Assembly: GCA_021163205.1 (NCBI GenBank)
Contig: JAGGXF010000003.1
Location: forward strand, 1,200 to 65,199
From: Candidatus Aenigmatarchaeota archaeon
Lineage (GTDB): Archaea; Aenigmatarchaeota; Aenigmatarchaeia; GW2011-AR5; JAGGXF01
DNA: 64,000 bases
Direction of reading: 5' to 3'
Shown one piece after another: positions 1,073-41,195 of the stretch (positions are counted from its first letter, which is position 1; each line of letters opens with the position of its first letter). The translations under genes were made by a program, and so were the position numbers. The notes beneath the pieces are model-generated. The model had not been told where the DNA came from and did no database searches. It was given only the letters and a program-made list of their open reading frames with translations.

Positions 1073-1594
1073 TCACTCCTCTTTTTTATTCTCTTCGCTT
1101 TCTTTTATTTTACTTTCTTCTTTGATATCCTCTTTAAGTTCTTCAGGCAGGTCTAATCCTTCTGCTTTTTCTGGTGTCCATGGTTCTGCTATGCCTTCTG
1201 GGTCTTCTATAAAATCAACGTCTTCTTCGTTGTCGTTGCCTTCATATTCATCCTCTGCCTGTAGATTTGTGCCAAGCGCTGCCTCAACAATTGCTTTTCT
1301 TATATCCTTGTTTCGAGCTGCCTGAACAACATAAACTGAGTAGTTCACAAGTTCGTTGTGGAACTCAAAAGCAGCCTTCTCTAGGTCTTCTTTACTTGTT
1401 GACTCTTTTGCTTTTAACTTGACTATTATCTCTGTTTCCGGGTCTCCATCTATTATTGTATAAAACTTGTCCAAGAAAACATACGCAGCTGAATATATGA
1501 CCTCAAGCGGATATATCTTAGGATTAATAGATATTACAACTTGGTTTTTCTCTTCTTCAACATCAATAGGAACAGGGACATCCAATAGAATCAC
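1073..1594 (-). CDS. small protein, paralog B of tandem pair with long acidic C-terminal tail
   Basis: 173-aa ORF. The N-terminal ~100 aa are paralogous to ORF 814-1071 (ISINPKIYPLEVIYSAAYVF vs LTINSDLYPEEVINKAIEEY). The C-terminus is a D/E-rich tail. There is a 1-nt gap to the next gene. Confidence 0.5.
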   Translation of the reverse strand: MILLDVPVPIDVEEEKNQVVISINPKIYPLEVIYSAAYVFLDKFYTIIDGDPETEIIVKLKAKESTSKEDLEKAAFEFHNELVNYSVYVVQAARNKDIRKAIVEAALGTNLQAEDEYEGNDNEEDVDFIEDPEGIAEPWTPEKAEGLDLPEELKEDIKEESKIKESEENKKEE

Positions 1595-1646
1595 CTCTCG
1601 TCTTATATATAGACCATAATATCTAGTCTGCTCAAAACTTAAATAA

Positions 1647-2771
1647 TCATCTCATGATTACCTTAATCCAATTAACAAAACTTCCGTGGAACAGCAATGT
1701 TAAGATGTAGCCAAGTAAAAGAAAAATTGCGAACGGCTGTTTCTGGAAAACTAGAATCTCGTTGAAATCTATTTTTTTCTCTTTTTTCAGTTTCTTGATT
1801 TTTTCGATATCTTCTTTTGTTAGTTCACCTAAACTATGAATATATCTTTCCTTTCGTTGTTGAAGCGTTTGTATAAGACTTGTCTGGAGAAAGCTGATCT
1901 TTTCTATCTTTTTATTTCGTTTAACTATCCCCTCCGCAAGAATCATACCCTCTTTCAGTTTATTTATTTTAACACTTTTTGTATAAGAATGGTAAGCTAT
2001 ATGTAGAATAAAAAACCTGAAAACGAGAAATATAAATACACTAACAGCAAACTGATAGAGGAATGCTGCCGTGTATATATTTCTGTAGTCTATGATAATT
2101 CTAATGATTGCACACAAAACAAAAAAGGCTTCTGTTTTTGCCGTGAAAAACATACGCAAGATTTCATATGCTATGAACATTGCGAATATGGTAACGAAAA
2201 AATTAGATGGTAATTTAAAAAGTGAAAGAAAAGTCGTGAATAACCAGGCAAAACCAAGGAATATTACAGATATCAATACAATCTTGTAGGGCTCGAATGC
2301 GTACTTAAATGCTTTTTTAATTACATCTGCTCTTGCCCTCACCAGAAGAATTACAAAAATAAAGAAGAATATTGGCACGAAAGAGTTAACCAAATAGTCC
2401 ATAACCACCGATGAATGTTTATAAAGAATTGGTGGGAACAGGAGGCTCAATGCAAGAAAAAGCTTTGCATCACCAGCAGGCCACATACCCAGATGCCAGA
2501 AAAGGATTGACACCAGAAATGAAGATAAAAATACATTCACAAAAACCGCCGGCTCGATACCAAAATAAAACTGAAATAAGATAGCATATAGAAGTAATAA
2601 AGCAATATACCTGTTCCTGATAACACCTTTCTTTAGATCTTCATAGGAAATTAAAATTCCTATTAGAATAGGAAAAATAAACTCTATCACGAGAGTCCCA
2701 TCCACTTTTTCTTCAGTTGTATGCTTTCTAAGCAAGCTTTGATGAGTTCTTTGTCTCTCAATGTTTGACAC
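1647..2771 (-). CDS. A24-family prepilin/preflagellin peptidase-like polytopic membrane protein with C-terminal extension (true start probably downstream of 2771)
   Basis: Multiple TM segments. The motif WPAGDAKLF matches the GxGDxK catalytic-Asp motif of FlaK/PibD-type peptidases. The C-terminal soluble region resembles that of the second A24-like gene at 22815. Confidence 0.55.
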   Translation of the reverse strand: MSNIERQRTHQSLLRKHTTEEKVDGTLVIEFIFPILIGILISYEDLKKGVIRNRYIALLLLYAILFQFYFGIEPAVFVNVFLSSFLVSILFWHLGMWPAGDAKLFLALSLLFPPILYKHSSVVMDYLVNSFVPIFFFIFVILLVRARADVIKKAFKYAFEPYKIVLISVIFLGFAWLFTTFLSLFKLPSNFFVTIFAMFIAYEILRMFFTAKTEAFFVLCAIIRIIIDYRNIYTAAFLYQFAVSVFIFLVFRFFILHIAYHSYTKSVKINKLKEGMILAEGIVKRNKKIEKISFLQTSLIQTLQQRKERYIHSLGELTKEDIEKIKKLKKEKKIDFNEILVFQKQPFAIFLLLGYILTLLFHGSFVNWIKVIMR

Positions 2772-3121
2772 ATAGTATTGTTCAGACTTATACGAGCCAC
2801 ACAGAACGTCCTGATCTCCCAGTCGTTTATTTCATAACAGATAGAAATGTTATTAGTTATTTCTGCGACATCTCCTATGCAAAATGACTTATTGACATGC
2901 CCACACACCCGCTTACAGTCCTCCAATGTCGAATGTTCTGGAAGTGAAAAATTTTCTTCACAACTCTTGTAAATTTCATATGAAATGTTTGTTATATTAT
3001 TAATTGTGTTATTAAAATCCTTTACTTGGTTTGTAGACGACTGATTTAGAGATATAACTAGACAAAACAGAATGGCCAATACCAGTGCCATCACAACTAG
3101 TTGATATTTTGTCTTCTTCAT
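2687..3121 (-). CDS. small Cys-rich protein with N-terminal signal peptide/membrane anchor
   Basis: 144 aa with N-terminus MKKTKYQLVVMALVLAILFCLVISL (basic n-region plus hydrophobic h-region). The mature part has 8-9 Cys and many N-x-S/T sequons. Its start overlaps the stop of the upstream radical SAM gene (ATGA). Confidence 0.45.
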   Translation of the reverse strand: MKKTKYQLVVMALVLAILFCLVISLNQSSTNQVKDFNNTINNITNISYEIYKSCEENFSLPEHSTLEDCKRVCGHVNKSFCIGDVAEITNNISICYEINDWEIRTFCVARISLNNTMCQTLRDKELIKACLESIQLKKKWMGLS

Positions 3122-4038
3122 ATTCTGGTCACTTTATTTCCCAACACGGGCTTGAATTCATCCCAGCCATATTTTTGTGGATATTCTTTCCACGGACCTT
3201 CGCATATCAAATCAAACTTGCATTTTTTACAGCCTTCAAACTTGGCTTTGCCACTCTCCTTTCGCCACCTATCAAAGTCCTTGATGACAAGCTCAGCATC
3301 TCTGACCTCGCCTCTGGGCATGAATAACTCTGAACAATACTTCTCATAGCCCCGCATAAAGCAGAATGGGAAAGCTTCAACCATCATTCTCACACCACTA
3401 TTCTTCCCTATGTCCAAAGCCCTGTGTATGTAAGGTTTAACATCGCTCTTCCTAGGGACAACTTTGTCAAAATTTTTCCAGGCATTTCCAACAGGGTGAA
3501 CAAAAGCAAGTTGAAATTGGTCAACACCCAATTTTATGAGCAGTTCGGCAAGCTCTGGTAAAGATTTATAATTATATTTTGTGACAACAGAATTGGTCAT
3601 AACATACTGATCAAGCTCGACAAGATTTTTTATTCCTTGAACCGTCTGAGCAAAACTGCCTGGTGCACGCGTTTGCATTTCATGTATCTCTGCTGTTGGT
3701 CCGTGCAACGCTGGCGAGAATTCTGTTGCACCGGCTTTGATTATCTTCTCACAAAAATTCTTGTAGGAAAACATACGGCCATTTGACTGTATCTGGATAG
3801 CTTCGTAACCCAAATCCTTTGCATATTTTACTAACTCTAGAATATCCTTCCTTATAGTTGGTTCTCCACCTGTGAAAACAACTTCCGTGCATCCGTCTTC
3901 TTTGCCCTCTCTAAGATGCTTCTTCAGCGCGTCTGTTGTCTGGTCTCCCAGATGCCTCTTATGCGCCTGCGCACAAAAAATGCAGTTATTATTACAACGA
4001 AATCCTACCTTAAGGTCAAGCCTCTTTTGTAACGACAT
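3118..4038 (-). CDS. radical SAM enzyme
   Basis: 306 aa. Contains FRCNNNCIFCAQ (CxxxCxxC), a GGEPT glycine-rich SAM motif, and C-terminal Cys pairs (CKKCKFDLIC). Confidence 0.75.
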   Translation of the reverse strand: MSLQKRLDLKVGFRCNNNCIFCAQAHKRHLGDQTTDALKKHLREGKEDGCTEVVFTGGEPTIRKDILELVKYAKDLGYEAIQIQSNGRMFSYKNFCEKIIKAGATEFSPALHGPTAEIHEMQTRAPGSFAQTVQGIKNLVELDQYVMTNSVVTKYNYKSLPELAELLIKLGVDQFQLAFVHPVGNAWKNFDKVVPRKSDVKPYIHRALDIGKNSGVRMMVEAFPFCFMRGYEKYCSELFMPRGEVRDAELVIKDFDRWRKESGKAKFEGCKKCKFDLICEGPWKEYPQKYGWDEFKPVLGNKVTRI

Positions 4039-9076: not shown

Positions 9077-11572
9077 GTGTCGGAGATGGAAATCGGGACA
9101 CATAACAAAGCTTATGAAAATGGACCTAATTTAGATAGTGATTCAACTGAGATCATAAATAAGGTACTTTCTACGAATAAAACCAACCCATTTGAATACA
9201 TCTCTCAATTGAAGAACTATTCTGAATTCTTTGAAAATAAAAACGAAAAAGAGCTCCTTAAAGAAAGATTACCAGAAATTGTTGGTTATAATAATGTATA
9301 TGAAGAAATCACAGACAGAACAACAGCCGCGCTCGCTCTTATAAAAGATGCCATCGCCATCAAAGACTATGACGCGCTGAAGAGCTTCTCTAAGGAATTT
9401 GGGATATCATACGAAAAACTTCTCAAACTGGGGGAGAATATGGATGAGATAGAAAAGACCGTCCGAAGATATATTAGAGGCCTAGTAAAAGAGGAGCTAT
9501 CAGAAGCCAGGGAAAAAGTTAGAAACGAATCAGCGTTGTTGAAAAGGCTCGAAGACCCCGCATATGAAGCAGAGCTTATGAAATATCCGGCCTATCAGTG
9601 GGGTAAACTCTTGAAAGAACTTGAAGATGGGGTAAACAAAGGTTACATAAAGACAGATGATTATGGAAGATACATTCTCGAGCATAATGGAGAGCCGTTC
9701 GCATTGGTTGACCCAGAATACGGTATAATAACAGACAAACCAAATAAAATCTTCGGATGGGACCCAACCTACGACAGACTGGGAAACTATGCAGTTCCCA
9801 CAAAACAGTATCTTATTGATGTTGACAGAGAAGTTGAAATACCAGACTACATTATTGAGGACGTCAAGAAAGATTCTGAGCTAAAAGAAGTGAAAACGAT
9901 AAGAGACCTTCTCAAACTAAGGCCAAAAATTGCAAAGAAATTGGGCATATATGGAGAAAAACACATAGACCCGAAAAAACTAGAAAGCTTCATCTATCTT
10001 TCTGGCAAAAAATCAAGTCTTTGGAAAAAGATAGCATCAGTTCTCATTCCTGCAGCGTTTGTTACTGCAGGTCTTGGCTGTTTGAATGGTCCAAAAGAAA
10101 CAAACCCAACCACAACACCGCAGGTAACTACAGCGCCACCGACTGATACAACACCGCCCACATCAGCAGCGCCAACAACACCAGTGAAAACGCCATCGAC
10201 AACTCCACACGTGACAACAACCGTACCGCCAACAACAACCCCAGCCCCGGACTATGTAGGACCTTATCTGGATGTTTTGGGATTGCCAAGAACACCCGAG
10301 ACAGAAAAAGAAATTAATGAATACTTGATTGAAAAGAATATCAGTCCAGAAGATGTTGGAAAGGTTTTGAAGGAGTTATCAAACTATGGTTTTGTGTCTG
10401 ATAAAGAGGTTCATGATTGGATAACAGACGAGAGACTAACCATACCTGAGATAGCAAATATGTACGAACTAATAGAAGACGGTGCATCCACTGATGTTGC
10501 ACTTTTCTTGGGAGAATATAATGATTGGATAAAGAAGCTGCCGAATTATGAAGAGGTTTTGAAAACATTAAATAACCTCGACCCGAGAGATAAGAAATAT
10601 CTGTTTATACATCCCATGACCGAAGGACGTGTAGAGGCGGCTGATGTCTTCTCGGATTGGTGTAATGGTCAGTATGGTCGGTATGTTACTAATAAAGAAA
10701 ATATAACAGAATTTTCTGCACTTTCAATAATTTATTATTTACCAGCCAGCGAAGGACCAAAGAAAAAAATACTTAGCAGAATGGAAGAAAATTTTAAACA
10801 ATATCCGAAAGATAGACTTGACATGGTGGCAAAAGACCGAAGGGCGTTGTTCTTCCTTTTATACAATATGCACCCTACCCAATTAAATTTTGGATTTGAT
10901 ATAGATAATCAAACAGAAAGTATTATATATCCAGAAACTATCGAAAAAGCCCAGGATGCTGGAAAAATTGTAGATTTGAATCCAGATAATTTAACAGACG
11001 ATGAACTTGGTAGAATTTTCTACTATGTTGCCACAACTGTCAATGGGGGCAGAGAGCTGAGGGGGGATGCAAAAAAACTAGACAAGGCTTTTGATTTGTT
11101 TTTGAAAAGAGAAGAAGATTTTGGAGACTGTCAAGTTGACTCTGCTATATTTTCAAATATTATAAACAATAGCATTCCTTTTGATGGAGAGGGTAATTCA
11201 ATCGCCATAACAACTTTAAATTATGAGAAATTGACTGAAAGATTCGCACCAAGAGATCACGCCTCCCCACTAATTTTAAAAGAGGATAAGAATGGGGACA
11301 TAAATTGTTATGTTCCTTGGTATGATAAGCATAAGAAAAAAATTATTCTTGTTCGTGCAAAATTTTCAGGTTCTTATAGATTTATTTCTCCATATCTACT
11401 TTTAATTGAATATGGAACAGATGAGTATGGAAAGCCTATGCCTATAGTGCATCAATATATAAAAGGGTCTCGAACAGAATTAATAAAACTGCCTGAAGTT
11501 GATATAGATTCGGAGGGACTTGTAAACGAAATCTTTAAGTCAGGCGAAAAATTAATCAGAGCCTGGGATTGA
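9077..11572 (+). CDS. large single-pass membrane protein with Pro/Thr-rich linker; function unknown
   Basis: 831 aa. Has an N-terminal ~315-aa coiled-coil-rich domain and a TM helix (IASVLIPAAFVTAGLGCLNG). A ~60-aa low-complexity T/P linker (TTTPQVTTAPPTDTTPPTSAAPTTPVKTPSTTPHVTTTVPPTTTPAP) follows, then a ~430-aa C-terminal domain. The start may be GTG 9077 or ATG 9086. Confidence 0.6.
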   Translation: MSEMEIGTHNKAYENGPNLDSDSTEIINKVLSTNKTNPFEYISQLKNYSEFFENKNEKELLKERLPEIVGYNNVYEEITDRTTAALALIKDAIAIKDYDALKSFSKEFGISYEKLLKLGENMDEIEKTVRRYIRGLVKEELSEAREKVRNESALLKRLEDPAYEAELMKYPAYQWGKLLKELEDGVNKGYIKTDDYGRYILEHNGEPFALVDPEYGIITDKPNKIFGWDPTYDRLGNYAVPTKQYLIDVDREVEIPDYIIEDVKKDSELKEVKTIRDLLKLRPKIAKKLGIYGEKHIDPKKLESFIYLSGKKSSLWKKIASVLIPAAFVTAGLGCLNGPKETNPTTTPQVTTAPPTDTTPPTSAAPTTPVKTPSTTPHVTTTVPPTTTPAPDYVGPYLDVLGLPRTPETEKEINEYLIEKNISPEDVGKVLKELSNYGFVSDKEVHDWITDERLTIPEIANMYELIEDGASTDVALFLGEYNDWIKKLPNYEEVLKTLNNLDPRDKKYLFIHPMTEGRVEAADVFSDWCNGQYGRYVTNKENITEFSALSIIYYLPASEGPKKKILSRMEENFKQYPKDRLDMVAKDRRALFFLLYNMHPTQLNFGFDIDNQTESIIYPETIEKAQDAGKIVDLNPDNLTDDELGRIFYYVATTVNGGRELRGDAKKLDKAFDLFLKREEDFGDCQVDSAIFSNIINNSIPFDGEGNSIAITTLNYEKLTERFAPRDHASPLILKEDKNGDINCYVPWYDKHKKKIILVRAKFSGSYRFISPYLLLIEYGTDEYGKPMPIVHQYIKGSRTELIKLPEVDIDSEGLVNEIFKSGEKLIRAWD

Positions 11573-11603
11573 AAATTAACTGATTTCTATTAAACCAGAA
11601 GAC

Positions 11604-11648
11604 TCTTTTTGGGCGCTTTAAATAAAGCTGAAGCCTCTCGGCCGAGAG
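11604..11648 (+). terminator. oligo-T run followed by 14-nt perfect palindrome downstream of the 831-aa gene
   Basis: TTTTT at 11604-11608. CTCTCGGCCGAGAG at 11635-11648 is a perfect inverted repeat. Both lie 30-75 nt after the stop at 11572. Confidence 0.3.
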
Positions 11649-11736
11649 ATAATAGAGTAAAAACTGGCGCTGTCAGACAATAAAAAGATTATGCGCCTAT
11701 GCGCGACCGAAAGCTGAGCCTCCGGTACTTGTTTTA

Positions 11737-11764
11737 TATCAGCACTAGTTGGCTTTTGAAGAAT
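11737..11764. repeat. 28-bp direct repeat, copy 1 (TATCAGCACTAGTTGGCTTTTGAAGAAT)
   Basis: Identical 28-mer recurs at 14166-14193. The two copies bracket a three-gene cassette. Confidence 0.9.
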
Positions 11765-11916
11765 CCCCTTTAATATTGAATAGAATTGACTCGTTCCGTC
11801 ATTTTCTTAATAGAAAGAAAAAATAAAGGTCAAAAAACAAGTAAAGTAGAAGTCTTGGCTTTCGGCTCTTTCTTGATATTTTCAAGGTTGCTCATAAAGT
11901 TGTTAGAAACCGCCTA

Positions 11917-12306
11917 TCAAATAGTAGGTCCTGGACCAATATCTATGCAGCGACAGCAATAATCTTCTCCTGGCAAGTCTGGGTCGCAATCCTCTTCATA
12001 CCCAATACACTTGAGCGTGCCAACACTTCTACATGATGTCGAATCATCTACACACAAATAACCTGTGTTGCATTTAGTAACACCCTGGCTTTGCTCTTGC
12101 TCGGCTTTCACAACCTCTATGTCTTGCCAATCGGTCTCCCCGGCAGAATAATAACAGCACTGGTCGGGCTTAGAAGAACCATAAGAACTTCTTACGGATT
12201 CTGGGTCGTATGGCGGCGTCAACGACGCCAAATAAAAGAAGTAAGGCACGCAGCCGCACTCGCTGTAGCATTTCTGGCCTTCAGGACATGTGTCGTCATA
12301 CTTCAC
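11917..12306 (-). CDS. Cys-rich hypothetical protein (15 Cys in 129 aa), GC-rich relative to surroundings
   Basis: ORF MKYDDTCPEGQKCYSECGCVPYFFY...DYCCRCIDIGPGPTI has CC and CxC motifs throughout. Local GC content is visibly higher than the flanks. No signal peptide is evident. The coding status is uncertain. Confidence 0.4.
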   Translation of the reverse strand: MKYDDTCPEGQKCYSECGCVPYFFYLASLTPPYDPESVRSSYGSSKPDQCCYYSAGETDWQDIEVVKAEQEQSQGVTKCNTGYLCVDDSTSCRSVGTLKCIGYEEDCDPDLPGEDYCCRCIDIGPGPTI

Positions 12307-12378
12307 GATCCAATACTTAAGAGCAAGTTCTTTCTATTATTTAAGATAATTTTTAATACATAGAAATTAATTTATTTC

Positions 12379-13080
12379 ATGCTCTCCGTGATTCTGCCAG
12401 TTCACAACGAAGAAGAAAATCTTAAGCGGAATTTCTATAAAATTTATAAAAGTTTTGTTGGTCTTGGCGAAAAATTCGAAATCATAATTGCTGAGGACGG
12501 CTCTACTGACAACAGCCCAAAAATCTGCGAAAAATTTAAAAAGGAATTCAAAAATGTAAGGCACATTCACAGCAATACTAAACTGGGCAAAGGAAAGGCT
12601 CTTACTAATGCCATTCTAAAATCAAAAGGAAACAAGATCTGCTTTATGGACATAGACCTTTCGGCAGATCTTAGACACATTAAAAAAATAATAAAATGCC
12701 TGGAAACAAATGATATTTGCATCGGTTCTAGATATTCGAGAAGGAGCAAAAGATTTGGCAGTATGAAAAGGCTCTTGTTAAGCAGAGTATACAACTTTCT
12801 GGTAAGGATGGTTCTTGGCTCCAAAATCAGTGACCATCAGTGCGGTTTCAAGGCTTTTCGCAAAAAAAGTGTTCTGCCGATTTTGAAAAGGATGAAAAGC
12901 AAAAGCTTTTTCTGGGACACGGAAATGCTTGTTCTGGCGCAAAGAGCGCGCCTGAAGATAAAAGAAATTCCTGTTGTCTGGAGGGAGGGAAAAGACACGC
13001 GAGTAGATGTCATCAAGGACAGCATCTCAATGTTCTATGGAATAATAGAACTGAGAAAAAGATTGTCTAAAGGGTTGTAA
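12379..13080 (+). CDS. family 2 glycosyltransferase (dolichyl-phosphate sugar synthase-like)
   Basis: 233 aa. MLSVILPVHNEEENL...IIAEDGSTDNS...MDIDLSAD carries the GT2 DxD/ED signature of the DPM1-like architecture. Confidence 0.8.
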   Translation: MLSVILPVHNEEENLKRNFYKIYKSFVGLGEKFEIIIAEDGSTDNSPKICEKFKKEFKNVRHIHSNTKLGKGKALTNAILKSKGNKICFMDIDLSADLRHIKKIIKCLETNDICIGSRYSRRSKRFGSMKRLLLSRVYNFLVRMVLGSKISDHQCGFKAFRKKSVLPILKRMKSKSFFWDTEMLVLAQRARLKIKEIPVVWREGKDTRVDVIKDSISMFYGIIELRKRLSKGL

Positions 13081-14107
13081 TAAAATTCTTGAAAAAGGTC
13101 AGCGCTGTTTCAAAAACTCGCGGGCCGAACATGTTTTGCGTGCAATAATAACAGCTGAAAACGCATCCCTCGCATTTGTGCGCGAGCCTTTTCCTTTTTT
13201 CATGGAACTCCTTGCTACCATACCATTCCAAAAAATCCTTGTCAAGAATATTTTTTTCCATAGAAAAATCCTGGCATATATAAAATTCTCCGTCAGGCAT
13301 TATATCGAAAAAAACCAAACCGGCCTTGCAGTTCCACTTGTTCTTCTGGCTTATGAGATATTTCTCAGACAAACGCAGATAATAAGGCGGGGTCATCATG
13401 CCAGAAGAGAAGTATTGTCTTTTCAACAGCGAATATGTTTTTTTGACATCTTCAGAGTTCAGGTAACCATCACCTCTTGGCCTGAATCCATAATCGTCAG
13501 AATAGTGAGAATACATCACAGGTGACAAAAAGATATTAACACCAAGTGACTTGGCGAAGCTGACTATTTCAGGCAACTCTTTTATGTTTTTTTCTGTGAC
13601 CATCGTACTTATGTTAATGTTCTGTCCTTTTGCCTTATTTTTGGCGAGAAATTTAAGATTTTTCATGACCGTATCAAAATGTCCCCGTTGTGCATTATGA
13701 ACCTCTCTTTTTAGCGAATCCAATGATATTGATATTAAGTTTATTTTCGTGTCCAGCAGCCTTTTGTACATATGCTGAGGCATAGTGCCGTTGCTTGTTA
13801 TTTGTGTCCAAAAGCCTCTTTTGTTTGCATATTCTATGAGGTCAAAAATATCTGGGTTCAACAGGGGTTCGCCACCTGTAAAAGATATCTGGACAACGCC
13901 CATTCTATCCAGTATGTCGATAATCCTGATGAAACCTTCCTTGGATAATTCTTTGGGTATGACTTTTTCTCTAACACCACAATACTTGCACCTCAGATTG
14001 CATCTTTTGGTGACATGCAAATGCGCAAAAAAAGGTTTGTTTCGTAAAAAAAAGTTTCTGCTAGTCCTTAGCAATATCTTTGCAGTTTTAGCTGAAAAAT
14101 CAAACAA
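13067..14107 (-). CDS. radical SAM enzyme with C-terminal SPASM domain
   Basis: 346 aa. HVTKRCNLRCKYCGV (CxxxCxxC). The C-terminus CKAGLVFFDIMPDGEFYICQD...CEGCVFSCYYCTQ has SPASM-type auxiliary-cluster cysteines. Overlaps the GT2 gene end by 14 nt (convergent). Confidence 0.75.
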   Translation of the reverse strand: MFDFSAKTAKILLRTSRNFFLRNKPFFAHLHVTKRCNLRCKYCGVREKVIPKELSKEGFIRIIDILDRMGVVQISFTGGEPLLNPDIFDLIEYANKRGFWTQITSNGTMPQHMYKRLLDTKINLISISLDSLKREVHNAQRGHFDTVMKNLKFLAKNKAKGQNINISTMVTEKNIKELPEIVSFAKSLGVNIFLSPVMYSHYSDDYGFRPRGDGYLNSEDVKKTYSLLKRQYFSSGMMTPPYYLRLSEKYLISQKNKWNCKAGLVFFDIMPDGEFYICQDFSMEKNILDKDFLEWYGSKEFHEKRKRLAHKCEGCVFSCYYCTQNMFGPRVFETALTFFKNFITTL

Positions 14108-14165
14108 AAAATCACCTGTAATTATTATCTATAATTAAGCTAGATAATTAAAATCTTTGCCACAC

Positions 14166-14193
14166 TATCAGCACTAGTTGGCTTTTGAAGAAT
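14166..14193. repeat. 28-bp direct repeat, copy 2 (TATCAGCACTAGTTGGCTTTTGAAGAAT)
   Basis: Perfect match to 11737-11764. Lies 59 nt upstream of the radical SAM/SPASM gene start. Confidence 0.9.
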
Positions 14194-14339
14194 AAATATA
14201 ATCAGCAAAGAAATAGCTTTTATAAACTTGATGAAAATATTAATTATTGATATGCCTGACATTGCTTCACTCTATGAGTGAGCAACGCTGGGCTAATTTT
14301 TCGTTCAAAACTTACTCCCTATAGTGATTGTTTATTTTA

Positions 14340-15779
14340 TTATCCTTTCATAACAGCCAAAGGCACAAGCTTTGCAACAAGCTTTGCTATGCCCAAAGCA
14401 TCTGAAACGCGCACAACTTCGTCTATATCTTTGTAAGCTTTTGGCGCTTCCTCTGCCAAAACCTTCCACGAAGCAGAACGAACAAGTATATTCTGCTTTT
14501 CCAACTCTTCCTTAACCTTTTCACCACGCGTGGTTCTTAACATCTGTGCCCGACTAGAGACCCTGCCTGCGCCATGCGCCGTAGAGCCGAATGTAAGATT
14601 CATCGCCTCTTTTGTTCCATGAAGCACATAAGATGCAGTACCCATTGAACCGGGAATAAGAACAGGTTGTCCAACTTTTCTGTACACAGCAGGAACATCT
14701 TCATGTCCTGGTGGAAAACTTCGTGTCGCACCTTTTCTGTGAACATAAACTTTTCTTGTTTCACCGTCTATTTTATGCTTCTCAACTTTGCCAATGTTGT
14801 GACAAACATCATAAACAATATGCATACCTAGGTCTTCTGCGCTCTGGCCAATTACTTTTTGGAAAGCCTCGCGTGTCCAGTGGGTTATTAATTGACGATT
14901 GCACCATGCAAAGTTGGCAGCACATTTCATAGCTTCATAGTACTCTGCACAGGTGTCTGTTCCGGCCGGAGCATAAATGAGCTCTCGGTCCGGAAGCTTA
15001 GAAACGATGTCATTAAATTTATTTTCCATCTCCCTCAGATAATCTGTACAAACTTGATGACCAAATCCCCGAGAACCGGTATGAATCATAATACAGACTT
15101 GACCTTTTTCAAGACCAAAAACCTTAGCAACATCCTCGTTAAATATGTCTTTTATAAGTTGTATCTCCACAAAATGATTTCCTGCACCTGTTGTTCCTAT
15201 TTGCTCTTTACCGCGCTTAAGAGCCTTGTCAGAAACAGTGTCTGTATCAGCAAGCATGCTTCCATTCTCTTCTAGAAACTTCGGGTCTTCCTTCCAAGCA
15301 TATCCTTGTTCGACGGCCCACTTAACGCCTTTAGCAAGCGGCTCTAAAAGTTCTGACTTGCTCAATCGCAGCTTACCTGCCCGCCCAACCCCAGACGGTA
15401 TGTTTTTGAAAATCGTGTCCAGAAGCTCTTTGAGGTGTGGCTTAATATCGCTAAGCGTAAGGTTTGTGCGAATAATTCGAACGCCACAATTGATATCAAA
15501 ACCTATACCTCCGGGCGAAAGCCCACCTTTTTCATAATCAAGAGCAGCAACACCACCTATTGGAAAACCATATCCCTGATGACAGTCAGGTAATGCTATT
15601 GAATACTTATATATTCCAGGCAACGCAGCAACATTTTTAGTCTGCTCTATTGTGTTGTCCCCCTTTATTTTTTCAATAAGCTTTTCAGATGCAAAAATCC
15701 GACCAGGAACATTCATTTGACCTTCCTTCGGTATCTCCCAGACCATATCATTTATCTTTTTCAATTCCATAACCACCAC
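14340..15779 (-). CDS. rtcB: RNA-splicing ligase RtcB
   Basis: 479 aa. Motifs GIGFDINCGVR, HTGSRGFGHQV and NHAGAGR-like. Full-length with no intein. Confidence 0.9.
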   Translation of the reverse strand: MVVMELKKINDMVWEIPKEGQMNVPGRIFASEKLIEKIKGDNTIEQTKNVAALPGIYKYSIALPDCHQGYGFPIGGVAALDYEKGGLSPGGIGFDINCGVRIIRTNLTLSDIKPHLKELLDTIFKNIPSGVGRAGKLRLSKSELLEPLAKGVKWAVEQGYAWKEDPKFLEENGSMLADTDTVSDKALKRGKEQIGTTGAGNHFVEIQLIKDIFNEDVAKVFGLEKGQVCIMIHTGSRGFGHQVCTDYLREMENKFNDIVSKLPDRELIYAPAGTDTCAEYYEAMKCAANFAWCNRQLITHWTREAFQKVIGQSAEDLGMHIVYDVCHNIGKVEKHKIDGETRKVYVHRKGATRSFPPGHEDVPAVYRKVGQPVLIPGSMGTASYVLHGTKEAMNLTFGSTAHGAGRVSSRAQMLRTTRGEKVKEELEKQNILVRSASWKVLAEEAPKAYKDIDEVVRVSDALGIAKLVAKLVPLAVMKG

Positions 15780-17399: not shown

Positions 17400-19631
17400 T
17401 TGAGTGATTATCTCTTTTTTAAATTTTGTTTTCAAGTTATTTCTATGCTTGTTAGAAAAGCCCGCCTACCAAATGAAATTACCGAGATATTCGAAAGCAG
17501 AGGAATAAAAAAATTTAACGAACCACAACAAATGGCGATAGAGTCTGGTATTCTCGAGGGAGAAAATATTGTTGTTGCGTCTCCAACAGCTTCTGGAAAA
17601 ACCATTATTGCAGAACTTGCATTCGTAAAAAAATTTCTGGAAAAAAGTGGAAAAACGGTCTATGTTGTTCCCCTAAAAGCGCTGGCAATGGAAAAATACG
17701 ATGAATTTAAAGTATATGAAAAAATAGGAATGCGTATTGCCGTCTCCATTGGAGACTATGATTCATCTGACGAGTGGCTGGAAAAATATGACCTTATAAT
17801 ATGTACATCCGAAAAGCTTGATTCGATTTTGCGCCACAACCCAACCTGGACTAGAGACATAGCGCTAATAATAATAGATGAAATCCATCTTTTATCTGAT
17901 ATGAGTAGAGGACCGACACTAGAGGTCGTGATTACAAGGCTAAGAAATCAGACAAGAAGTCAAATCTTGGCACTGTCCGCCACAATATCTAACGCAGAGG
18001 AAATCTCACAATGGCTCAATGCAAAGCTTGTGAAAAGCAATTATAGACCAATAAAACTTGAGAAAGGGATCTTTTTCAAAAACAAAATAGATTTTGGCCA
18101 TAAAACCATTGAAATAAATGACACCGAGGCAAAACCAAAAGATGATTTAATTCTTCTTGTTCAGGACACCATAAAAAGGAAGAAGCAATCGCTTATTTTT
18201 TTATCATCGAGGAGAGCAGCAGAATCTGCCGCAGAAAAACTTGGGAACGAAATAGGAAAAATGATAAAAAACAAAAAGGAGCTTGAAAAAATTTCAAGAA
18301 AAATATTGAACGTTCTCACGCACCCGACCAAGCAATGTAAACGGCTTGCGCGATGTGTAAAAAATGGGATAGCATTCCATCATGCCGGGCTTGCGGCTAT
18401 GCAGAGAAAGATTATAGAAGACTATTTCAGAAAAGGTCTGATAAAGATTATAACAGCTACGCCAACTCTAGCCATGGGTGTGAATCTTCCGGCGTGGCGC
18501 GTAATAATAAGAGATGTGAAGCGATACAGCGGCTCTTTTGGTTATTCATTTATATCTACCCTTGAAATACAACAAATGTGTGGAAGAGCGGGCCGGCCAA
18601 AATATGACAAAGAAGGACAGGCGATATTAATAGCGAAAAACGAGGACGGAATAGAAAAGCTCAGGCAAAGATATATTATTAGCGAAGCGGAGCCTGTGTT
18701 GTCAAAACTTTCTGTTGAGCCCACATTGAGAATGCACATTCTTGCCCTGATAGCGGATCACACGTGCTCATCAGATAGTGAACTGTTCAATTTTTTTGAC
18801 AAAACCTTTTTCGGTTATCAATATGGTTCTAAAAGTGAGATTAAGAGAAAGATAGATGAAATAATATACCAGTTAAGAGACTTTGGGTTTGTAGAATTTT
18901 CTGACAGGTCAGAAAAATCATTCATAAAGAGTAGTTTTATTCCTGCTTTCAACATCTCCACAGAGAAAAGGCTCAGTCCGACCAGGATTGGTAAACGGGT
19001 AGCACAGCTATACATAGACCCTATAACAGCAAAAAACATAATAGACAGAACCAAAAGAATAAAAAAAGACCTAGGAGATTTTGCACTTGTTGATATTATA
19101 TCTGATTCTGTTGAAATGTATCCACCACTAAATGTTAAGACAAAAGAATATGAAGATATAGAATCGCTCATCTCAAAAAAAGAATTGTACAGAGAACTGC
19201 CAGAACTGTGGGACATTGAATATCAACAATTTTTAGAATCGTTCAAGCTCTCTCTACTTCTCGGTGATTGGATGAACGAGATGGGAGAAGATAAAATATT
19301 GGAAAAATATGGCATACCCCCAGGCATACTCTATCAAAAGTTAAGAAATGCGGAATGGCTGCTATATGCAGCACAGGAGCTCGCAAAAGTTATGAAAAAT
19401 CGGAAAGCGGCCTCATTGCTGAATAGGGCAAGAATGAGAATAAGATATGGTGTCAGGTCTGAGCTATTTCCGCTTATAAGAATAAAGAACATAGGGCGCG
19501 TAAGAGCAAGACTGCTCTTTGACGCTGGCGTAAAGACCGTGGCAGATATCAAGAAAGCACCGAAACAAAAACTAATAAAAATTCTGGGCAATAAGTTAAC
19601 TGATAAAATACTTGAAGAAGTTAAATCTTAG
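17400..19631 (+). CDS. hel308: Hel308/Hjm-type Ski2-like DNA helicase (likely start at M 17445)
   Basis: 743 aa. Walker A VASPTASGKT and DEIH box. C-terminal domains are typical of Hel308. Confidence 0.8.
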   Translation: MSDYLFFKFCFQVISMLVRKARLPNEITEIFESRGIKKFNEPQQMAIESGILEGENIVVASPTASGKTIIAELAFVKKFLEKSGKTVYVVPLKALAMEKYDEFKVYEKIGMRIAVSIGDYDSSDEWLEKYDLIICTSEKLDSILRHNPTWTRDIALIIIDEIHLLSDMSRGPTLEVVITRLRNQTRSQILALSATISNAEEISQWLNAKLVKSNYRPIKLEKGIFFKNKIDFGHKTIEINDTEAKPKDDLILLVQDTIKRKKQSLIFLSSRRAAESAAEKLGNEIGKMIKNKKELEKISRKILNVLTHPTKQCKRLARCVKNGIAFHHAGLAAMQRKIIEDYFRKGLIKIITATPTLAMGVNLPAWRVIIRDVKRYSGSFGYSFISTLEIQQMCGRAGRPKYDKEGQAILIAKNEDGIEKLRQRYIISEAEPVLSKLSVEPTLRMHILALIADHTCSSDSELFNFFDKTFFGYQYGSKSEIKRKIDEIIYQLRDFGFVEFSDRSEKSFIKSSFIPAFNISTEKRLSPTRIGKRVAQLYIDPITAKNIIDRTKRIKKDLGDFALVDIISDSVEMYPPLNVKTKEYEDIESLISKKELYRELPELWDIEYQQFLESFKLSLLLGDWMNEMGEDKILEKYGIPPGILYQKLRNAEWLLYAAQELAKVMKNRKAASLLNRARMRIRYGVRSELFPLIRIKNIGRVRARLLFDAGVKTVADIKKAPKQKLIKILGNKLTDKILEEVKS

Positions 19632-19632
19632 C

Positions 19633-19726
19633 GGGTCTGTAGTCTAGCTAATGCGCAAGCATCTAGAATGGTCTAGGATCGGGCCTTCGGGAGGCTCAGA
19701 CAGGAGTTCAAATCTCCTCAGACCCA
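19633..19726 (+). tRNA. tRNA-Pro(CGG) with putative 20-nt non-canonical intron in the D-loop (19649-19668)
   Basis: Acceptor GGGTCTG/CAGACCC. T-arm AGGAG-TTCAAAT-CTCCT. Anticodon stem-loop GGGCC-TTCGGGA-GGCTC (anticodon CGG, U33, G37). The D-region is 20 nt too long: AGC[TAATGCGCAAGCATCTAGAA]TGGTCTA. Confidence 0.7.
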
Positions 19727-29486: not shown

Positions 29487-29576
29487 ATGACACGTGTACT
29501 GATTATGATTATAAGAACAACAGACATGGCGGGTTGTTGAGAATCTCTTGAGCTCACCAGAGCTAATTTTCATTGC
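29487..29576 (+). repeat. ~90-bp intergenic repeat element, copy A (46-nt perfect core 29531-29576)
   Basis: Core GGGTTGTTGAGAATCTCTTGAGCTCACCAGAGCTAATTTTCATTGC is identical to 40773-40818. The preceding ~45 nt are ~80% identical, in the same orientation. Confidence 0.85.
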
Positions 29577-29598
29577 ATTCATTGATCACATTTCTAGC

Positions 29599-40726: not shown

Positions 40727-40818
40727 ATGACACGTATATCTGATTATGACATAAGAAGAATACACATGATATGGGTTGTTGAGAATCTCTTGAGCTCACC
40801 AGAGCTAATTTTCATTGC
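40727..40818 (+). repeat. ~90-bp intergenic repeat element, copy B (46-nt perfect core 40773-40818)
   Basis: See copy A at 29487-29576. Same orientation on + strand. Lies 62 nt upstream of the Trm112-like gene start. Confidence 0.85.
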
Positions 40819-40880
40819 GTTTGTCAGGTTCGCTGGGTAATATTATAAACAATAAATTTCTTACTACTAATGGTTTTAAT

Positions 40881-41045
40881 ATGGTATCTAGAAAATTGTT
40901 GGACATTCTAGCCTGCCCAAAATGCAAGAAACCGATAGACTATGATAAAGAAAATAATCAACTAATTTGTCACAGATGTAGATTAAAGTTTAAAGTAAAA
41001 GATGAGATTCCGGATATGTTGCTGGAAGACGCAGAAGCATTTTAG
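40881..41045 (+). CDS. Trm112-like small zinc-finger protein (DUF343)
   Basis: MVSRKLLDILACPKCKKPIDYDKENNQLICHRCRLKFKVKDEIPDMLLEDAEAF matches the Trm112/YbaR pattern (LLxILxCPxC...L.C..C...YP..DGIPxML). Confidence 0.6.
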   Translation: MVSRKLLDILACPKCKKPIDYDKENNQLICHRCRLKFKVKDEIPDMLLEDAEAF

Positions 41046-41047
41046 GT

Positions 41048-41195
41048 GCTGGGGTAGCCAAGTCAGGTCCAAGGCGCCAGCTTGGAGTTTAAAACAGAAA
41101 GCTGGTGAGCTTCGGCTCGCGTGGGTTCAAACCACCCCCTACGAGTTCGTCACTTAGTCGTAGACGGAGGGGGTGTGAAAATCCCATCCCCAGCG
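41048..41195 (+). tRNA. tRNA-Ser(GGA), class II, 148 nt, with two putative introns (anticodon loop ~12 nt; T-loop ~51 nt)
   Basis: Acceptor GCTGGGG/CCCCAGC plus G73. D-arm GCC-AAGTCAGGTCCAA-GGC. Anticodon stem CCAGC/GCTGG with loop TTGGA(G) interrupted by TTTAAAACAGAA. Variable arm TGAGCTTCGGCTCG. The T-arm 5' half GTGGGTTCAAA is separated from its 3' half TCCCAT by ~51 nt. That insert includes a CACCCCC/GGGGGTG helix. The intron-free tRNA at 57476 has the same T-arm uninterrupted. Confidence 0.6.

Follow-up and report, generated by a model that had tools for sequence, protein, structure and literature searches.

Do two identical short repeats that flank accessory genes in an uncultured archaeon mark a mobile cassette, and what do the genes between them do? 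This question is raised by a contig of Candidatus Aenigmatarchaeota archaeon, of which a stretch of 64,000 nt (hereafter the window) was analyzed. A sequence-only reading of this stretch had described a cassette of three genes, encoding a small Cys-rich protein, a GT2 glycosyltransferase and a radical SAM (rSAM)/SPASM enzyme, bounded by perfect 28-bp direct repeats, and had likened it to systems that make ribosomally synthesized and modified peptides (RiPPs). In the present analysis, the repeat pair shows no sign of an active mobile cassette, and the rSAM and GT2 genes are probably cell-surface sugar-modifying genes.

The repeat pair and its single locus

The repeated sequence, TATCAGCACTAGTTGGCTTTTGAAGAAT (hereafter R), is found on the + strand at 11737-11764 (R1) and at 14166-14193 (R2), 2429 bp apart from start to start. 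As previously described, three ORFs lie between the convergent 831-aa gene and rtcB. The features of this region are listed below; type D is a sister lineage, whose diverged repeats are called Ra and Rb and whose repeat flanks are called Xa and Xb.

11642..11736, no strand: X', the flank adjoining R1; its counterpart lies beside both repeat copies in type D but, in the window, only beside R1
11737..11764, no strand: R1, on the side of the 831-aa gene, of the Ra type (25/28 identical to type D Ra, only 18/28 to its positional orthologue Rb)
11765..12345, - strand: Cys segment, an indel of 581 nt directly next to R1, with 28 nt in its place in type D
12152..12179, no strand: weak third copy of R inside the Cys-rich ORF, 21/28 identical and marginal (9 of 300 shuffles score equally well)
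12379..13080, + strand: GT2 glycosyltransferase, 233 aa, matching the polyprenyl-phosphate glycosyltransferase catalytic domain (ArnC, DPMS, GtrB)
13067..14107, - strand: rSAM enzyme, 346 aa, with CxxxCxxC at residues 36-43 and a C-terminal SPASM/twitch-like auxiliary-cluster domain; best fold match BlsE
14108..14165, - strand: region upstream of the rSAM gene, with an AGGTGA ribosome-binding site and an AT-rich TATA-like sequence
14166..14193, no strand: R2, which follows the rtcB stop at a distance of 146 nt and is orthologous to type D Ra (25/28)
14194..14339, - strand: 3' flank of rtcB, from its stop to R2, outside the repeat and 89-93% conserved between lineages

The repeat pair is real and non-random, as had been claimed: the window contains exactly two copies of the 28-mer where none is expected by chance (100 shuffles), no further match with up to three mismatches occurs in the 64 kb, and the identity of R1 and R2 ends exactly at both edges of the 28 nt. 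Both copies and the same flanks recur in L001 (ENA) and L061 (JGI), two further assemblies obtained independently for this strain; the pair is thus present in three independent assemblies and is not an assembly artefact. In strain L069 (97.7% identical), the copy on the rtcB side is devoid of one T, and the perfect 28/28 identity is therefore specific to the strain group of the window.

R was absent from elsewhere in the scans of a genome collection and of a viral collection, and the metagenome scan retrieved only two contigs, both of the same locus. R is confined to one locus across all the DNA examined (loci, genome, metagenome and viral scans). R as part of a structured RNA or as a tRNA fragment was considered and rejected (no Rfam match at gathering thresholds or E <= 1, no tRNA, no significant fold). 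A 40-aa ORF on the minus strand (14140-14262) that runs through R2 was rejected as well, since type D has not kept it: there the frame is altered by a 1-nt indel in R and closed by a stop six codons on.

The search for the usual attributes of a mobile element confirmed that no integrase is encoded between the repeats; furthermore, neither the ~50 largest ORFs of the 64 kb nor the genes tabulated for L064, L067 and L068 include a detectable integrase or recombinase. The ORFs of the islet encode no detectable transposase domain, and no terminal inverted repeats have arms starting inward from 11765 and 14165. An empty site, in which rtcB-R-X would be joined directly to the 831-aa gene, was looked for in relatives, following the suggestion that these could carry a single copy of R, and was found in no contig among those examined. 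L002 and L063, which show rtcB, a single R and a sequence resembling the R1 flank, were rejected as empty sites because the longer contigs L064, L068 and L076 show AbiE, rSAM and GT2 next. The compositional comparison gave a mixed answer: the GC content of the islet (38.5%) is the same as that of its flanks (38-39.5%), whereas its GC3 is 0.44 versus 0.32-0.37.

A sister lineage with a longer duplication

In type D, represented by five contigs from at least four samples (L064, L068, L076, L077, L063), the order is rtcB-Ra-Xa-AbiEii-AbiEi-rSAM-GT2-Rb-Xb-A, where A is the 831-aa gene. The rSAM and GT2 genes are found at the same locus as in the window, bracketed by the diverged direct repeats Ra and Rb (18/28 identical), whose homology extends ~95 nt beyond R into the X flank. 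Alignment of Ra-Xa with Rb-Xb covers ~122 nt at ~75% identity, with a score of 71 versus 19.8 +/- 2.3 for shuffles. Since the two copies have diverged and their homology runs on through X, the duplication is old and ~120 nt long. A recent insertion finds no support in these relatives, which carry rSAM and GT2 between the same flanking genes with only diverged repeat copies around them. This is largely the situation that the sequence-only reading had named as contrary to its own proposal, i.e. relatives with the same genes, without repeats, in a conserved context.

Direct repeats are therefore present at both ends of accessory DNA in both lineages (28/28 in the window strain, ~122 nt at ~75% in type D). 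The proposal that they flank accessory DNA is supported, as the flanked DNA is strain-variable, and the DNA that adjoins each copy differs by strain: AbiE at the copy on the rtcB side in type D, the Cys segment at the other copy in the window strain. The AbiE pair of type D (PADLOC, AbiEii 4e-55 and AbiEi 1e-53; L068 8307-9215 and 9212-9841) is absent from the window and is not separated from rSAM-GT2 by any copy of R. Homology between the window and type D begins at 14159, in the region upstream of rSAM, and the 6 nt at 14160-14165 (gtgtgg, minus strand) stand where type D has Xa and AbiEii/AbiEi. A further change is seen in L067, where R1 was removed by a deletion of 471 nt whose endpoints each lie at a GCTTT of the window sequence. 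L067 is not the left flank of type D but a third variant, being 96.8% identical to the window versus 94.7% to L068.

Within each genome, the repeat copies resemble each other in patches, a pattern that points to gene conversion. R1 is identical to R2 at 28/28 positions, to Ra at 25/28 and to Rb at 18/28; in proximal X, Xa and Xb share 38/50 positions and X' and Xb only 29/50, while in distal X the identity of X' and Xb is 78/104. Furthermore, the T common to R1 and R2 of the window is missing from both R2 of L069 and Ra of type D. From these segments of 28-50 nt and one indel, we infer that gene conversion may have homogenized the copies; this would explain the 28/28 identity in the window strain versus 18/28 in the sister lineage. 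Alternatively, Rb may have drifted fast in type D.

Comparison of synonymous divergence between the window strain and type D revealed low values for the 3' end of the 831-aa gene (dS 0.19), GT2 (0.28) and rSAM (0.38), compared to 1.18 for rtcB, 0.84 for archease and saturation for the polyprenyl synthase. This low dS relative to rtcB is common to the islet, the 831-aa gene and both repeats. Sliding identity is 89-93% from 14166 to ~14460 and then falls to 74-83%. As the tract that includes both repeats has a far lower dS than the core genes, we read it as recently exchanged between lineages. Homologous recombination probably accounts for the exchange, and one of its breakpoints would fall within the 3' end of rtcB. 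The dS contrast had suggested R2 as the edge of the exchanged tract, but the breakpoint lies ~270-300 nt further, inside rtcB. Nor is the islet more similar than both its flanks, since the side of the 831-aa gene is equally or more similar. The 3' flank of rtcB (14194..14339) folds better than shuffles (z = -3.6).

Origin of the duplication

We put at somewhat better than even the chance that this locus is an ordinary strain-variable islet bracketed by an old direct duplication, with the identical 28-mers as its core. R and its X flank (~120 nt), i.e. intergenic DNA between the convergent rtcB and 831-aa membrane-protein genes, would have been duplicated and would now bracket a small accessory islet whose stable content is the convergent rSAM-GT2 pair. 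The copies would have been patchily homogenized within each genome by gene conversion, and the whole tract would have been exchanged recently between lineages by homologous recombination. The duplication itself is possibly an attL/attR-type scar, left by an old small element that would have carried AbiE, rSAM and GT2 and whose recombinase would since have been lost. The att-like remnant proposed earlier thus seems the most plausible origin of the repeats, although neither an integrase nor an empty site was found.

The locus shares several traits with degraded elements and islets bounded by attL and attR that derive from integration by tyrosine recombinases in archaea and bacteria: accessory genes at an intergenic site between conserved genes have direct repeats, tens of bases long, on either side, one lineage carries an AbiE module and the gene content is strain-variable. 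Unlike such elements, the islet has no integrase or integrase remnant that could be found, no tRNA target, no observed empty site and no contrast in GC content with its flanks, and the length and identity of its repeats are lineage-dependent.

Some observations count against the islet reading. No empty site that would attest an insertion event was found; no recombinase was found among the ~50 largest ORFs of the window and the GC content of the islet equals that of the flanks; the exact end of the deletion or replacement of the window strain at the R/X boundary is unexplained by simple decay.

It is unlikely that R-X is instead a functional 3'-end module, i.e. a terminator or regulatory site that would be present twice to serve each of two + strand genes, the 831-aa gene and, in type D, AbiEii; the repeat would then reflect selection on function. 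Each R-X of type D does follow a + strand gene, at 137-164 nt. In all versions, despite differing sequences, proximal X forms a GC hairpin, with TTGTTTTAT after it on the + strand (as in X' of the window), and a TATA-like box, TTTTATAT, spans the X/R junction. However, R2 of the window has neither X nor a + strand gene ahead of it, the hairpin folds no better than shuffles (z -0.3 to +0.7) and is not called by the terminator scan, and R drifts freely in Rb and is deleted in L067.

We consider it distinctly unlikely that R works as a site where cassettes without an integrase recombine, like the sites of Xer-dependent dif modules (IMEX) or of attC clusters lacking an integrase (CALINs), and at which the rSAM-GT2(-Cys) and AbiE blocks would be moved by a recombinase encoded elsewhere. 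Toxin-antitoxin modules are units typical of dif modules, and the AbiE pair would fit that pattern. The islet lacks an integrase, and both strain-specific indels abut the boundary of R exactly (AbiE and Xa after Ra, the Cys segment before R1). Moreover, Aenigmatarchaeota are reported to contain attC sites, most of them in clusters that lack an integrase (PMC9668308), and the 28 bp of R equal the length of dif, which consists of two imperfect inverted arms of 11 bp around a 6-bp spacer (PMC2958812). However, R is not dyad-symmetric (in the 11-6-11 layout its arms match at 5/11, a value equalled or exceeded at 13% of window positions); no RYYYAAC...GTTRRRY pair, i.e. no pair of the R''/R' cores of attC, lies within 11000-14600, and the whole window contains two attC-like core pairs versus 15.8 +/- 5.7 in shuffles; X-R single-strand folds are no better than shuffles. 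Its confinement to one locus, the drift of Rb to 18/28 (unexpected for a site under selection), the lack of a copy between AbiE and rSAM-GT2 in type D and the loss of R1 in L067 by microhomology deletion also argue against such a site. The locus would gain in importance only if R were a genuine recombination site, and this is unlikely on present evidence. A variant of this proposal, to which we ascribe a very low probability, is that R (with X) would be a dedicated site, unlike dif and attC in sequence and architecture, where DPANN archaea swap integrase-less modules by means of a recombinase encoded elsewhere; the modules would be the glycan-modification pair, the AbiE defence or toxin module and a surface-protein fragment.

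The genes between the repeats

The small Cys-rich ORF exists as described, except that its 129 aa (11917-12306, minus strand) include 14 rather than 15 Cys. It is also GC-rich as claimed (47.7%), but it is the sole GC-rich part of the islet. In L062, a sister strain that is 97% identical, it carries two in-frame stops, with seven nonsynonymous versus four synonymous changes; it is truncated in L067, and it is absent from type D, where rSAM and GT2 remain. In the databases searched, its full-length homology is limited to a strain copy of 99% identity. The ORF otherwise resembles one module, present three times, of the Cys-rich surface protein P0138 (697 aa). It is a decaying fragment and not a peptide precursor, and as its segment is a separate indel, the discrete three-gene cassette of the earlier description is not supported.

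The resemblance to P0138 raises another explanation, that R, its 21/28 copy and the Cys ORF would be remnants of one repetitive minus-strand gene encoding a Cys-rich surface protein, later broken by insertions. All three copies of R share the same orientation, and R in the frame of the Cys ORF reads SSKAN*C*Y versus SSKPDQCCY. This explanation nevertheless has little probability: the nucleotide similarity is marginal, as seen above, X does not resemble the Cys ORF, and type D, the lineage with the best-preserved R-X, does not have the Cys segment.

The assignment of the rSAM gene to rSAM/SPASM enzymes is compatible with its C-terminus (C260-X12-G-X4-C278 and C312-X2-C315-X3-C319, five Cys conserved in 32 homologues) and with a SPASM/twitch-like fold, although the Pfam SPASM domain gave no match. 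This fold groups with BlsE, SuiB, SkfB, MoaA and anSME; the best size-matched fold is that of BlsE, a sugar-nucleoside decarboxylase, and those of RiPP maturases cover only about half of their longer targets (TM-score by target ~0.5). The structure model (pLDDT 90) has a single helix ahead of the barrel, and no RRE or PqqD-like domain was found, CxxxCxxC being located already at residue 36. All NCBIfam maturase models score far below their cutoffs (StsB 99 versus 625 bits, PapB 77 versus 340, AlbA 67 versus 850, and others). Viperin, or another defence role, was rejected because the similarity to the PADLOC pVip models is limited to the generic core (residues 30-177).

The GT2 gene is convergent with the rSAM gene, their 3' ends overlapping by 14 nt. 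Its product matches ArnC (5.5e-15 over residues 2-209) as well as Pyrococcus DPMS and GtrB; at 233 aa it is too short for C-terminal transmembrane helices, and all NCBIfam equivalogs are below cutoff. At an rSAM identity of 55%, the two genes do not remain paired. Neighbourhoods of distant rSAM homologues contain VTT/DedA proteins, a methyltransferase, an NTP transferase, a CDP-alcohol phosphatidyltransferase and GT9, with no small peptide gene beside the rSAM gene among the genes called there. A literature search for an rSAM/DedA/CDP-alcohol transferase cluster returned nothing.

A RiPP cluster (sactipeptide, ranthipeptide or glycocin), in which rSAM would crosslink and GT2 glycosylate the Cys ORF product, does have the look of the known ones, with a SPASM/twitch-like rSAM enzyme (weak sequence or fold matches to CteB, SuiB and SkfB) beside a glycosyltransferase and a Cys-rich ORF, but it is already largely refuted and extremely improbable, as the locus differs from such clusters by the lack of a conserved precursor and of an RRE, a BlsE-like nearest structure, a GT2 that resembles lipid-phosphate sugar transferases and the membrane or lipid genes around rSAM homologues. 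This removes a false lead: the islet is not a new RiPP system. Judging from family resemblance, the most likely role of rSAM and GT2 is the synthesis or modification of a lipid-linked sugar used to glycosylate the cell surface.

The islet provides a small worked example of strain-to-strain variation in probable accessory surface-glycosylation genes of an uncultured DPANN archaeon, with indels beside old direct repeats, apparent homogenization of these repeats and tract exchange between lineages whose core genes are far more diverged. Similarly to flexible islands for cell-surface glycosylation, which strains exchange through homologous recombination in the core genes on either side, it associates a glycosyltransferase and sugar-modifying genes with an adjacent surface-protein gene, its identity between lineages is mosaic, and synonymous divergence falls sharply across a breakpoint in the flanking core gene. 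Unlike these islands, it is very small (two stable genes) and has its own direct repeats, which such islands need not have.

The 28-mer pair and the layout of the locus

The 28-mer TATCAGCACTAGTTGGCTTTTGAAGAAT occurs at 11737-11764 (R1, on the side of the 831-aa gene) and 14166-14193 (R2, on the side of rtcB), and the identity of the copies stops precisely at both edges of these 28 nt. Both copies recur in L001 (ENA) and L061 (JGI), two more assemblies of this strain with 98.9-99.9% identity, so the pair is not an assembly artefact. The sequence-only reading was correct about the two perfect copies, the ORFs between them and their position between the 3' ends of the 831-aa ORF and rtcB. No further match with ≤3 mismatches was found within the 64-kb window, where shuffles expect none, and R was seen at this locus only among the 77 loci examined. 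Scans of genome and viral collections gave 0 matches and the metagenome scan gave two contigs, both carrying this locus. A third copy in the Cys-rich ORF is marginal (21/28; 9/300 shuffles reach its score). RtcB, archease and ribosomal protein S26e mark the window as archaeal, and NCBI lists its proteins under names from a Candidatus Aenigmarchaeota MAG. The ORFs between the copies are:

11917-12306, minus strand: Cys-rich ORF, 129 aa, 14 Cys
12379-13080, plus strand: GT2, 233 aa
13067-14107, minus strand: radical SAM (rSAM) protein, 346 aa

A sister lineage (type D) was recovered from several independent samples (L002, NCBI MAG; L063, JGI; L064, L068 and L077, ENA; L076, Logan), whose contigs are 98-99.8% identical among themselves. 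Its repeat copies are Ra (rtcB side) and Rb (831-aa-gene side); X', Xa and Xb denote the flanks adjoining R1, Ra and Rb.

Order of the locus in the two lineages, in the direction of rtcB
Type W (window): rtcB - R2 - 6 nt - rSAM - GT2 - 581-nt Cys segment - R1 - X' - 831-aa gene
Type D: rtcB - Ra - Xa - AbiEii - AbiEi - rSAM - GT2 - 28 nt - Rb - Xb - 831-aa gene

The rSAM-GT2 pair therefore occupies one chromosomal place in both lineages, and the difference between them is confined to the DNA adjoining the repeats. An old direct duplication thus encloses a small islet that varies between strains. No islet-free contig was found among relatives; L002 and L063 gave an impression of empty sites that was due to short contigs.

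Age, proposed origin and probable exchange of the duplication

In type D, Ra-Xa and Rb-Xb can be aligned over ~122 nt (score 71 vs 19.8 +/- 2.3 in shuffles); judging from this alignment, the duplication extends beyond the 28 nt and is older than their present identity suggests. The identities of the R and X segments are discordant between comparisons.

Identities between repeat copies and flanks
R, R1 and R2 (window): 28/28
R, R1 and Ra: 25/28
R, R1 and Rb (positional orthologue): 18/28
R, Ra and Rb: 18/28
Proximal X, Xa and Xb (within type D): 38/50
Proximal X, X' and Xb (orthologues): 29/50
Distal X, X' and Xb: 78/104
Distal X, Xa and either other: about 40% or less (38/104, 39/97)

Such patchy within-genome similarity is the pattern that gene conversion between direct repeats yields, and recombination would keep the bracketing duplication partly homogeneous. 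Furthermore, one T common to R1 and R2 of the window is missing in R2 of L069 (97.7% identical) and in Ra of type D, indicating that the perfect 28/28 is a recent, strain-level state.

R has no Rfam match, tRNA or significant fold. It is devoid of the 11-6-11 dyad of dif sites as defined in PMC2958812 (arms 5/11, the background level) and of attC-type cores (archaeal integrons have been described in PMC9668308). No terminal inverted repeats lie just within R1 and R2, and no integrase or transposase domain was found among the ~50 largest ORFs scanned in the window. The most plausible origin of the duplication is an attL/attR-type scar of an old integration, of which the type D AbiE module would be a trace.

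dS (synonymous divergence), type W vs type D
831-aa gene, 3' end: 0.19
GT2: 0.28
rSAM: 0.38
archease: 0.84
rtcB: 1.18
polyprenyl synthase: saturated

Sliding identity between the two types is 89-93% from R2 to ~14460, including the last ~120 nt of rtcB, and 74-83% beyond; within the islet it is a mosaic (74-99% per 100 nt). We read these sequence comparisons to mean that the two lineages probably exchanged the whole tract (≤10759 to ~14460) recently, both repeats included, with one breakpoint inside rtcB and not at R.

Genes of the islet

The strain variants show that R1 and the Cys-rich ORF are dispensable. L067, 96.8% identical to the window across 11.3 kb, lacks 11616-12086 (X', R1 and the 3' portion of the Cys-rich ORF), and GCTTT at each end of this segment in the window suggests a microhomology-mediated deletion. 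In L062 (~97%), the ORF has two in-frame stops, with seven nonsynonymous and four synonymous codon changes, and it is missing altogether from type D. A search of 5.8 billion proteins found a 99% strain copy as the sole full-length homologue, and an exhaustive search gave weak matches only. The most informative one (34-44% identity) is to a Cys module that occurs three times in a Cys-rich protein of 697 aa, which ends in a PEF-type membrane tail. A decaying piece of a surface-protein gene is the best reading of the ORF. The neighbouring 831-aa protein, without Pfam match, has an apparent transmembrane segment and Thr/Pro-rich stalk in its translation.

GT2 matches polyprenyl-phosphate glycosyltransferases in their catalytic domain (ArnC, 5.5e-15; GtrB; dolichol-phosphate mannose synthase of Pyrococcus). 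The CxxxCxxC of the rSAM enzyme corresponds to residues 36-43, so an N-terminal RRE domain would not fit; its conserved C-terminal cysteines form CX12GX4C and CX2CX3C, and all its scores against NCBIfam models are far under cutoff. Its structure model is confident (pLDDT 90.3) and has the sugar-nucleoside decarboxylase BlsE as best match, over the full length (TM-score 0.68/0.71). SuiB, SkfB and CteB, which are RiPP maturases, align in their cores only. Bacterial homologues (42-46% identity) neighbour genes for VTT/DedA membrane proteins, a methyltransferase, an NTP transferase, a CDP-alcohol phosphatidyltransferase and GT9; a 55%-identity homologue has no GT2 neighbour. The two enzymes probably make or modify a lipid-linked sugar destined for the cell surface. 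The proposal of a three-gene mobile RiPP cassette was not sustained, given the shared place of rSAM-GT2, the dispensable Cys-rich ORF and the absence of an RRE.

Other features of the window and related contigs

L062 (347-395 and 1532-1691) carries a 44-nt insertion directly after R1 and departs from the window inside GT2 (window 12901) with 160 nt of unrelated sequence, which reflects either a further rearrangement or chimerism of the contig. At their ends, L064 and L067 (ENA ERZ23491052) overlap identically for 55 nt inside GT2 (window 12430-12484). This looks like an assembly-graph branch at sequence common to co-existing strains; the locus may therefore be polymorphic in one sample.

The rtcB 3' flank (14194-14339, minus strand), 89-93% conserved across both lineages, folds at -32.2 kcal/mol (z = -3.6; 0/200 shuffles as good) and could be a terminator, a 3'-UTR structure or a small RNA. 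A Hel308-type helicase gene (743 aa, 17400-19631) is also found in L001 and L069. Type D lacks it at the matching place, which is flanked by the genes for HAD hydrolase and polyprenyl synthase.

The window also encodes GGGP synthase, glycerol-1-phosphate dehydrogenase, an archaeosortase-like protein and, on the left, a type IV pilus-like cluster (1073-4038; L067 815-3777). One of its products is a radical SAM protein of 306 aa, so that another rSAM system, unrelated to that of the islet, lies <10 kb away; the syntenic L067 cluster additionally has genes for an HxsD-family protein and for an archaeal prepilin peptidase.

A second intergenic direct repeat (29531-29579 and 40773-40821; 49 nt, 98% identity, 11.2 kb apart), with weaker similarity ~45 nt further upstream, encloses housekeeping genes only (enolase, Cbf5, GINS, primase, eIF2-alpha, PAC2). 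Read on the minus strand, each copy starts with ATGAAAATTAGC... (MKISSGELKRFSTT), and the two may thus represent paralogous small ORFs. The only Rfam tRNA of the window (19633-19726) may hold an intron, since it spans 94 nt vs a 71-position model. A tRNA-like sequence at ~41037-41195 (GCTGGGGTAGCCAAGTCAGG ... GGTTCAAA ... CCCCAGC), called neither by ARAGORN nor by Rfam at gathering score, is apparently split by one or two introns.
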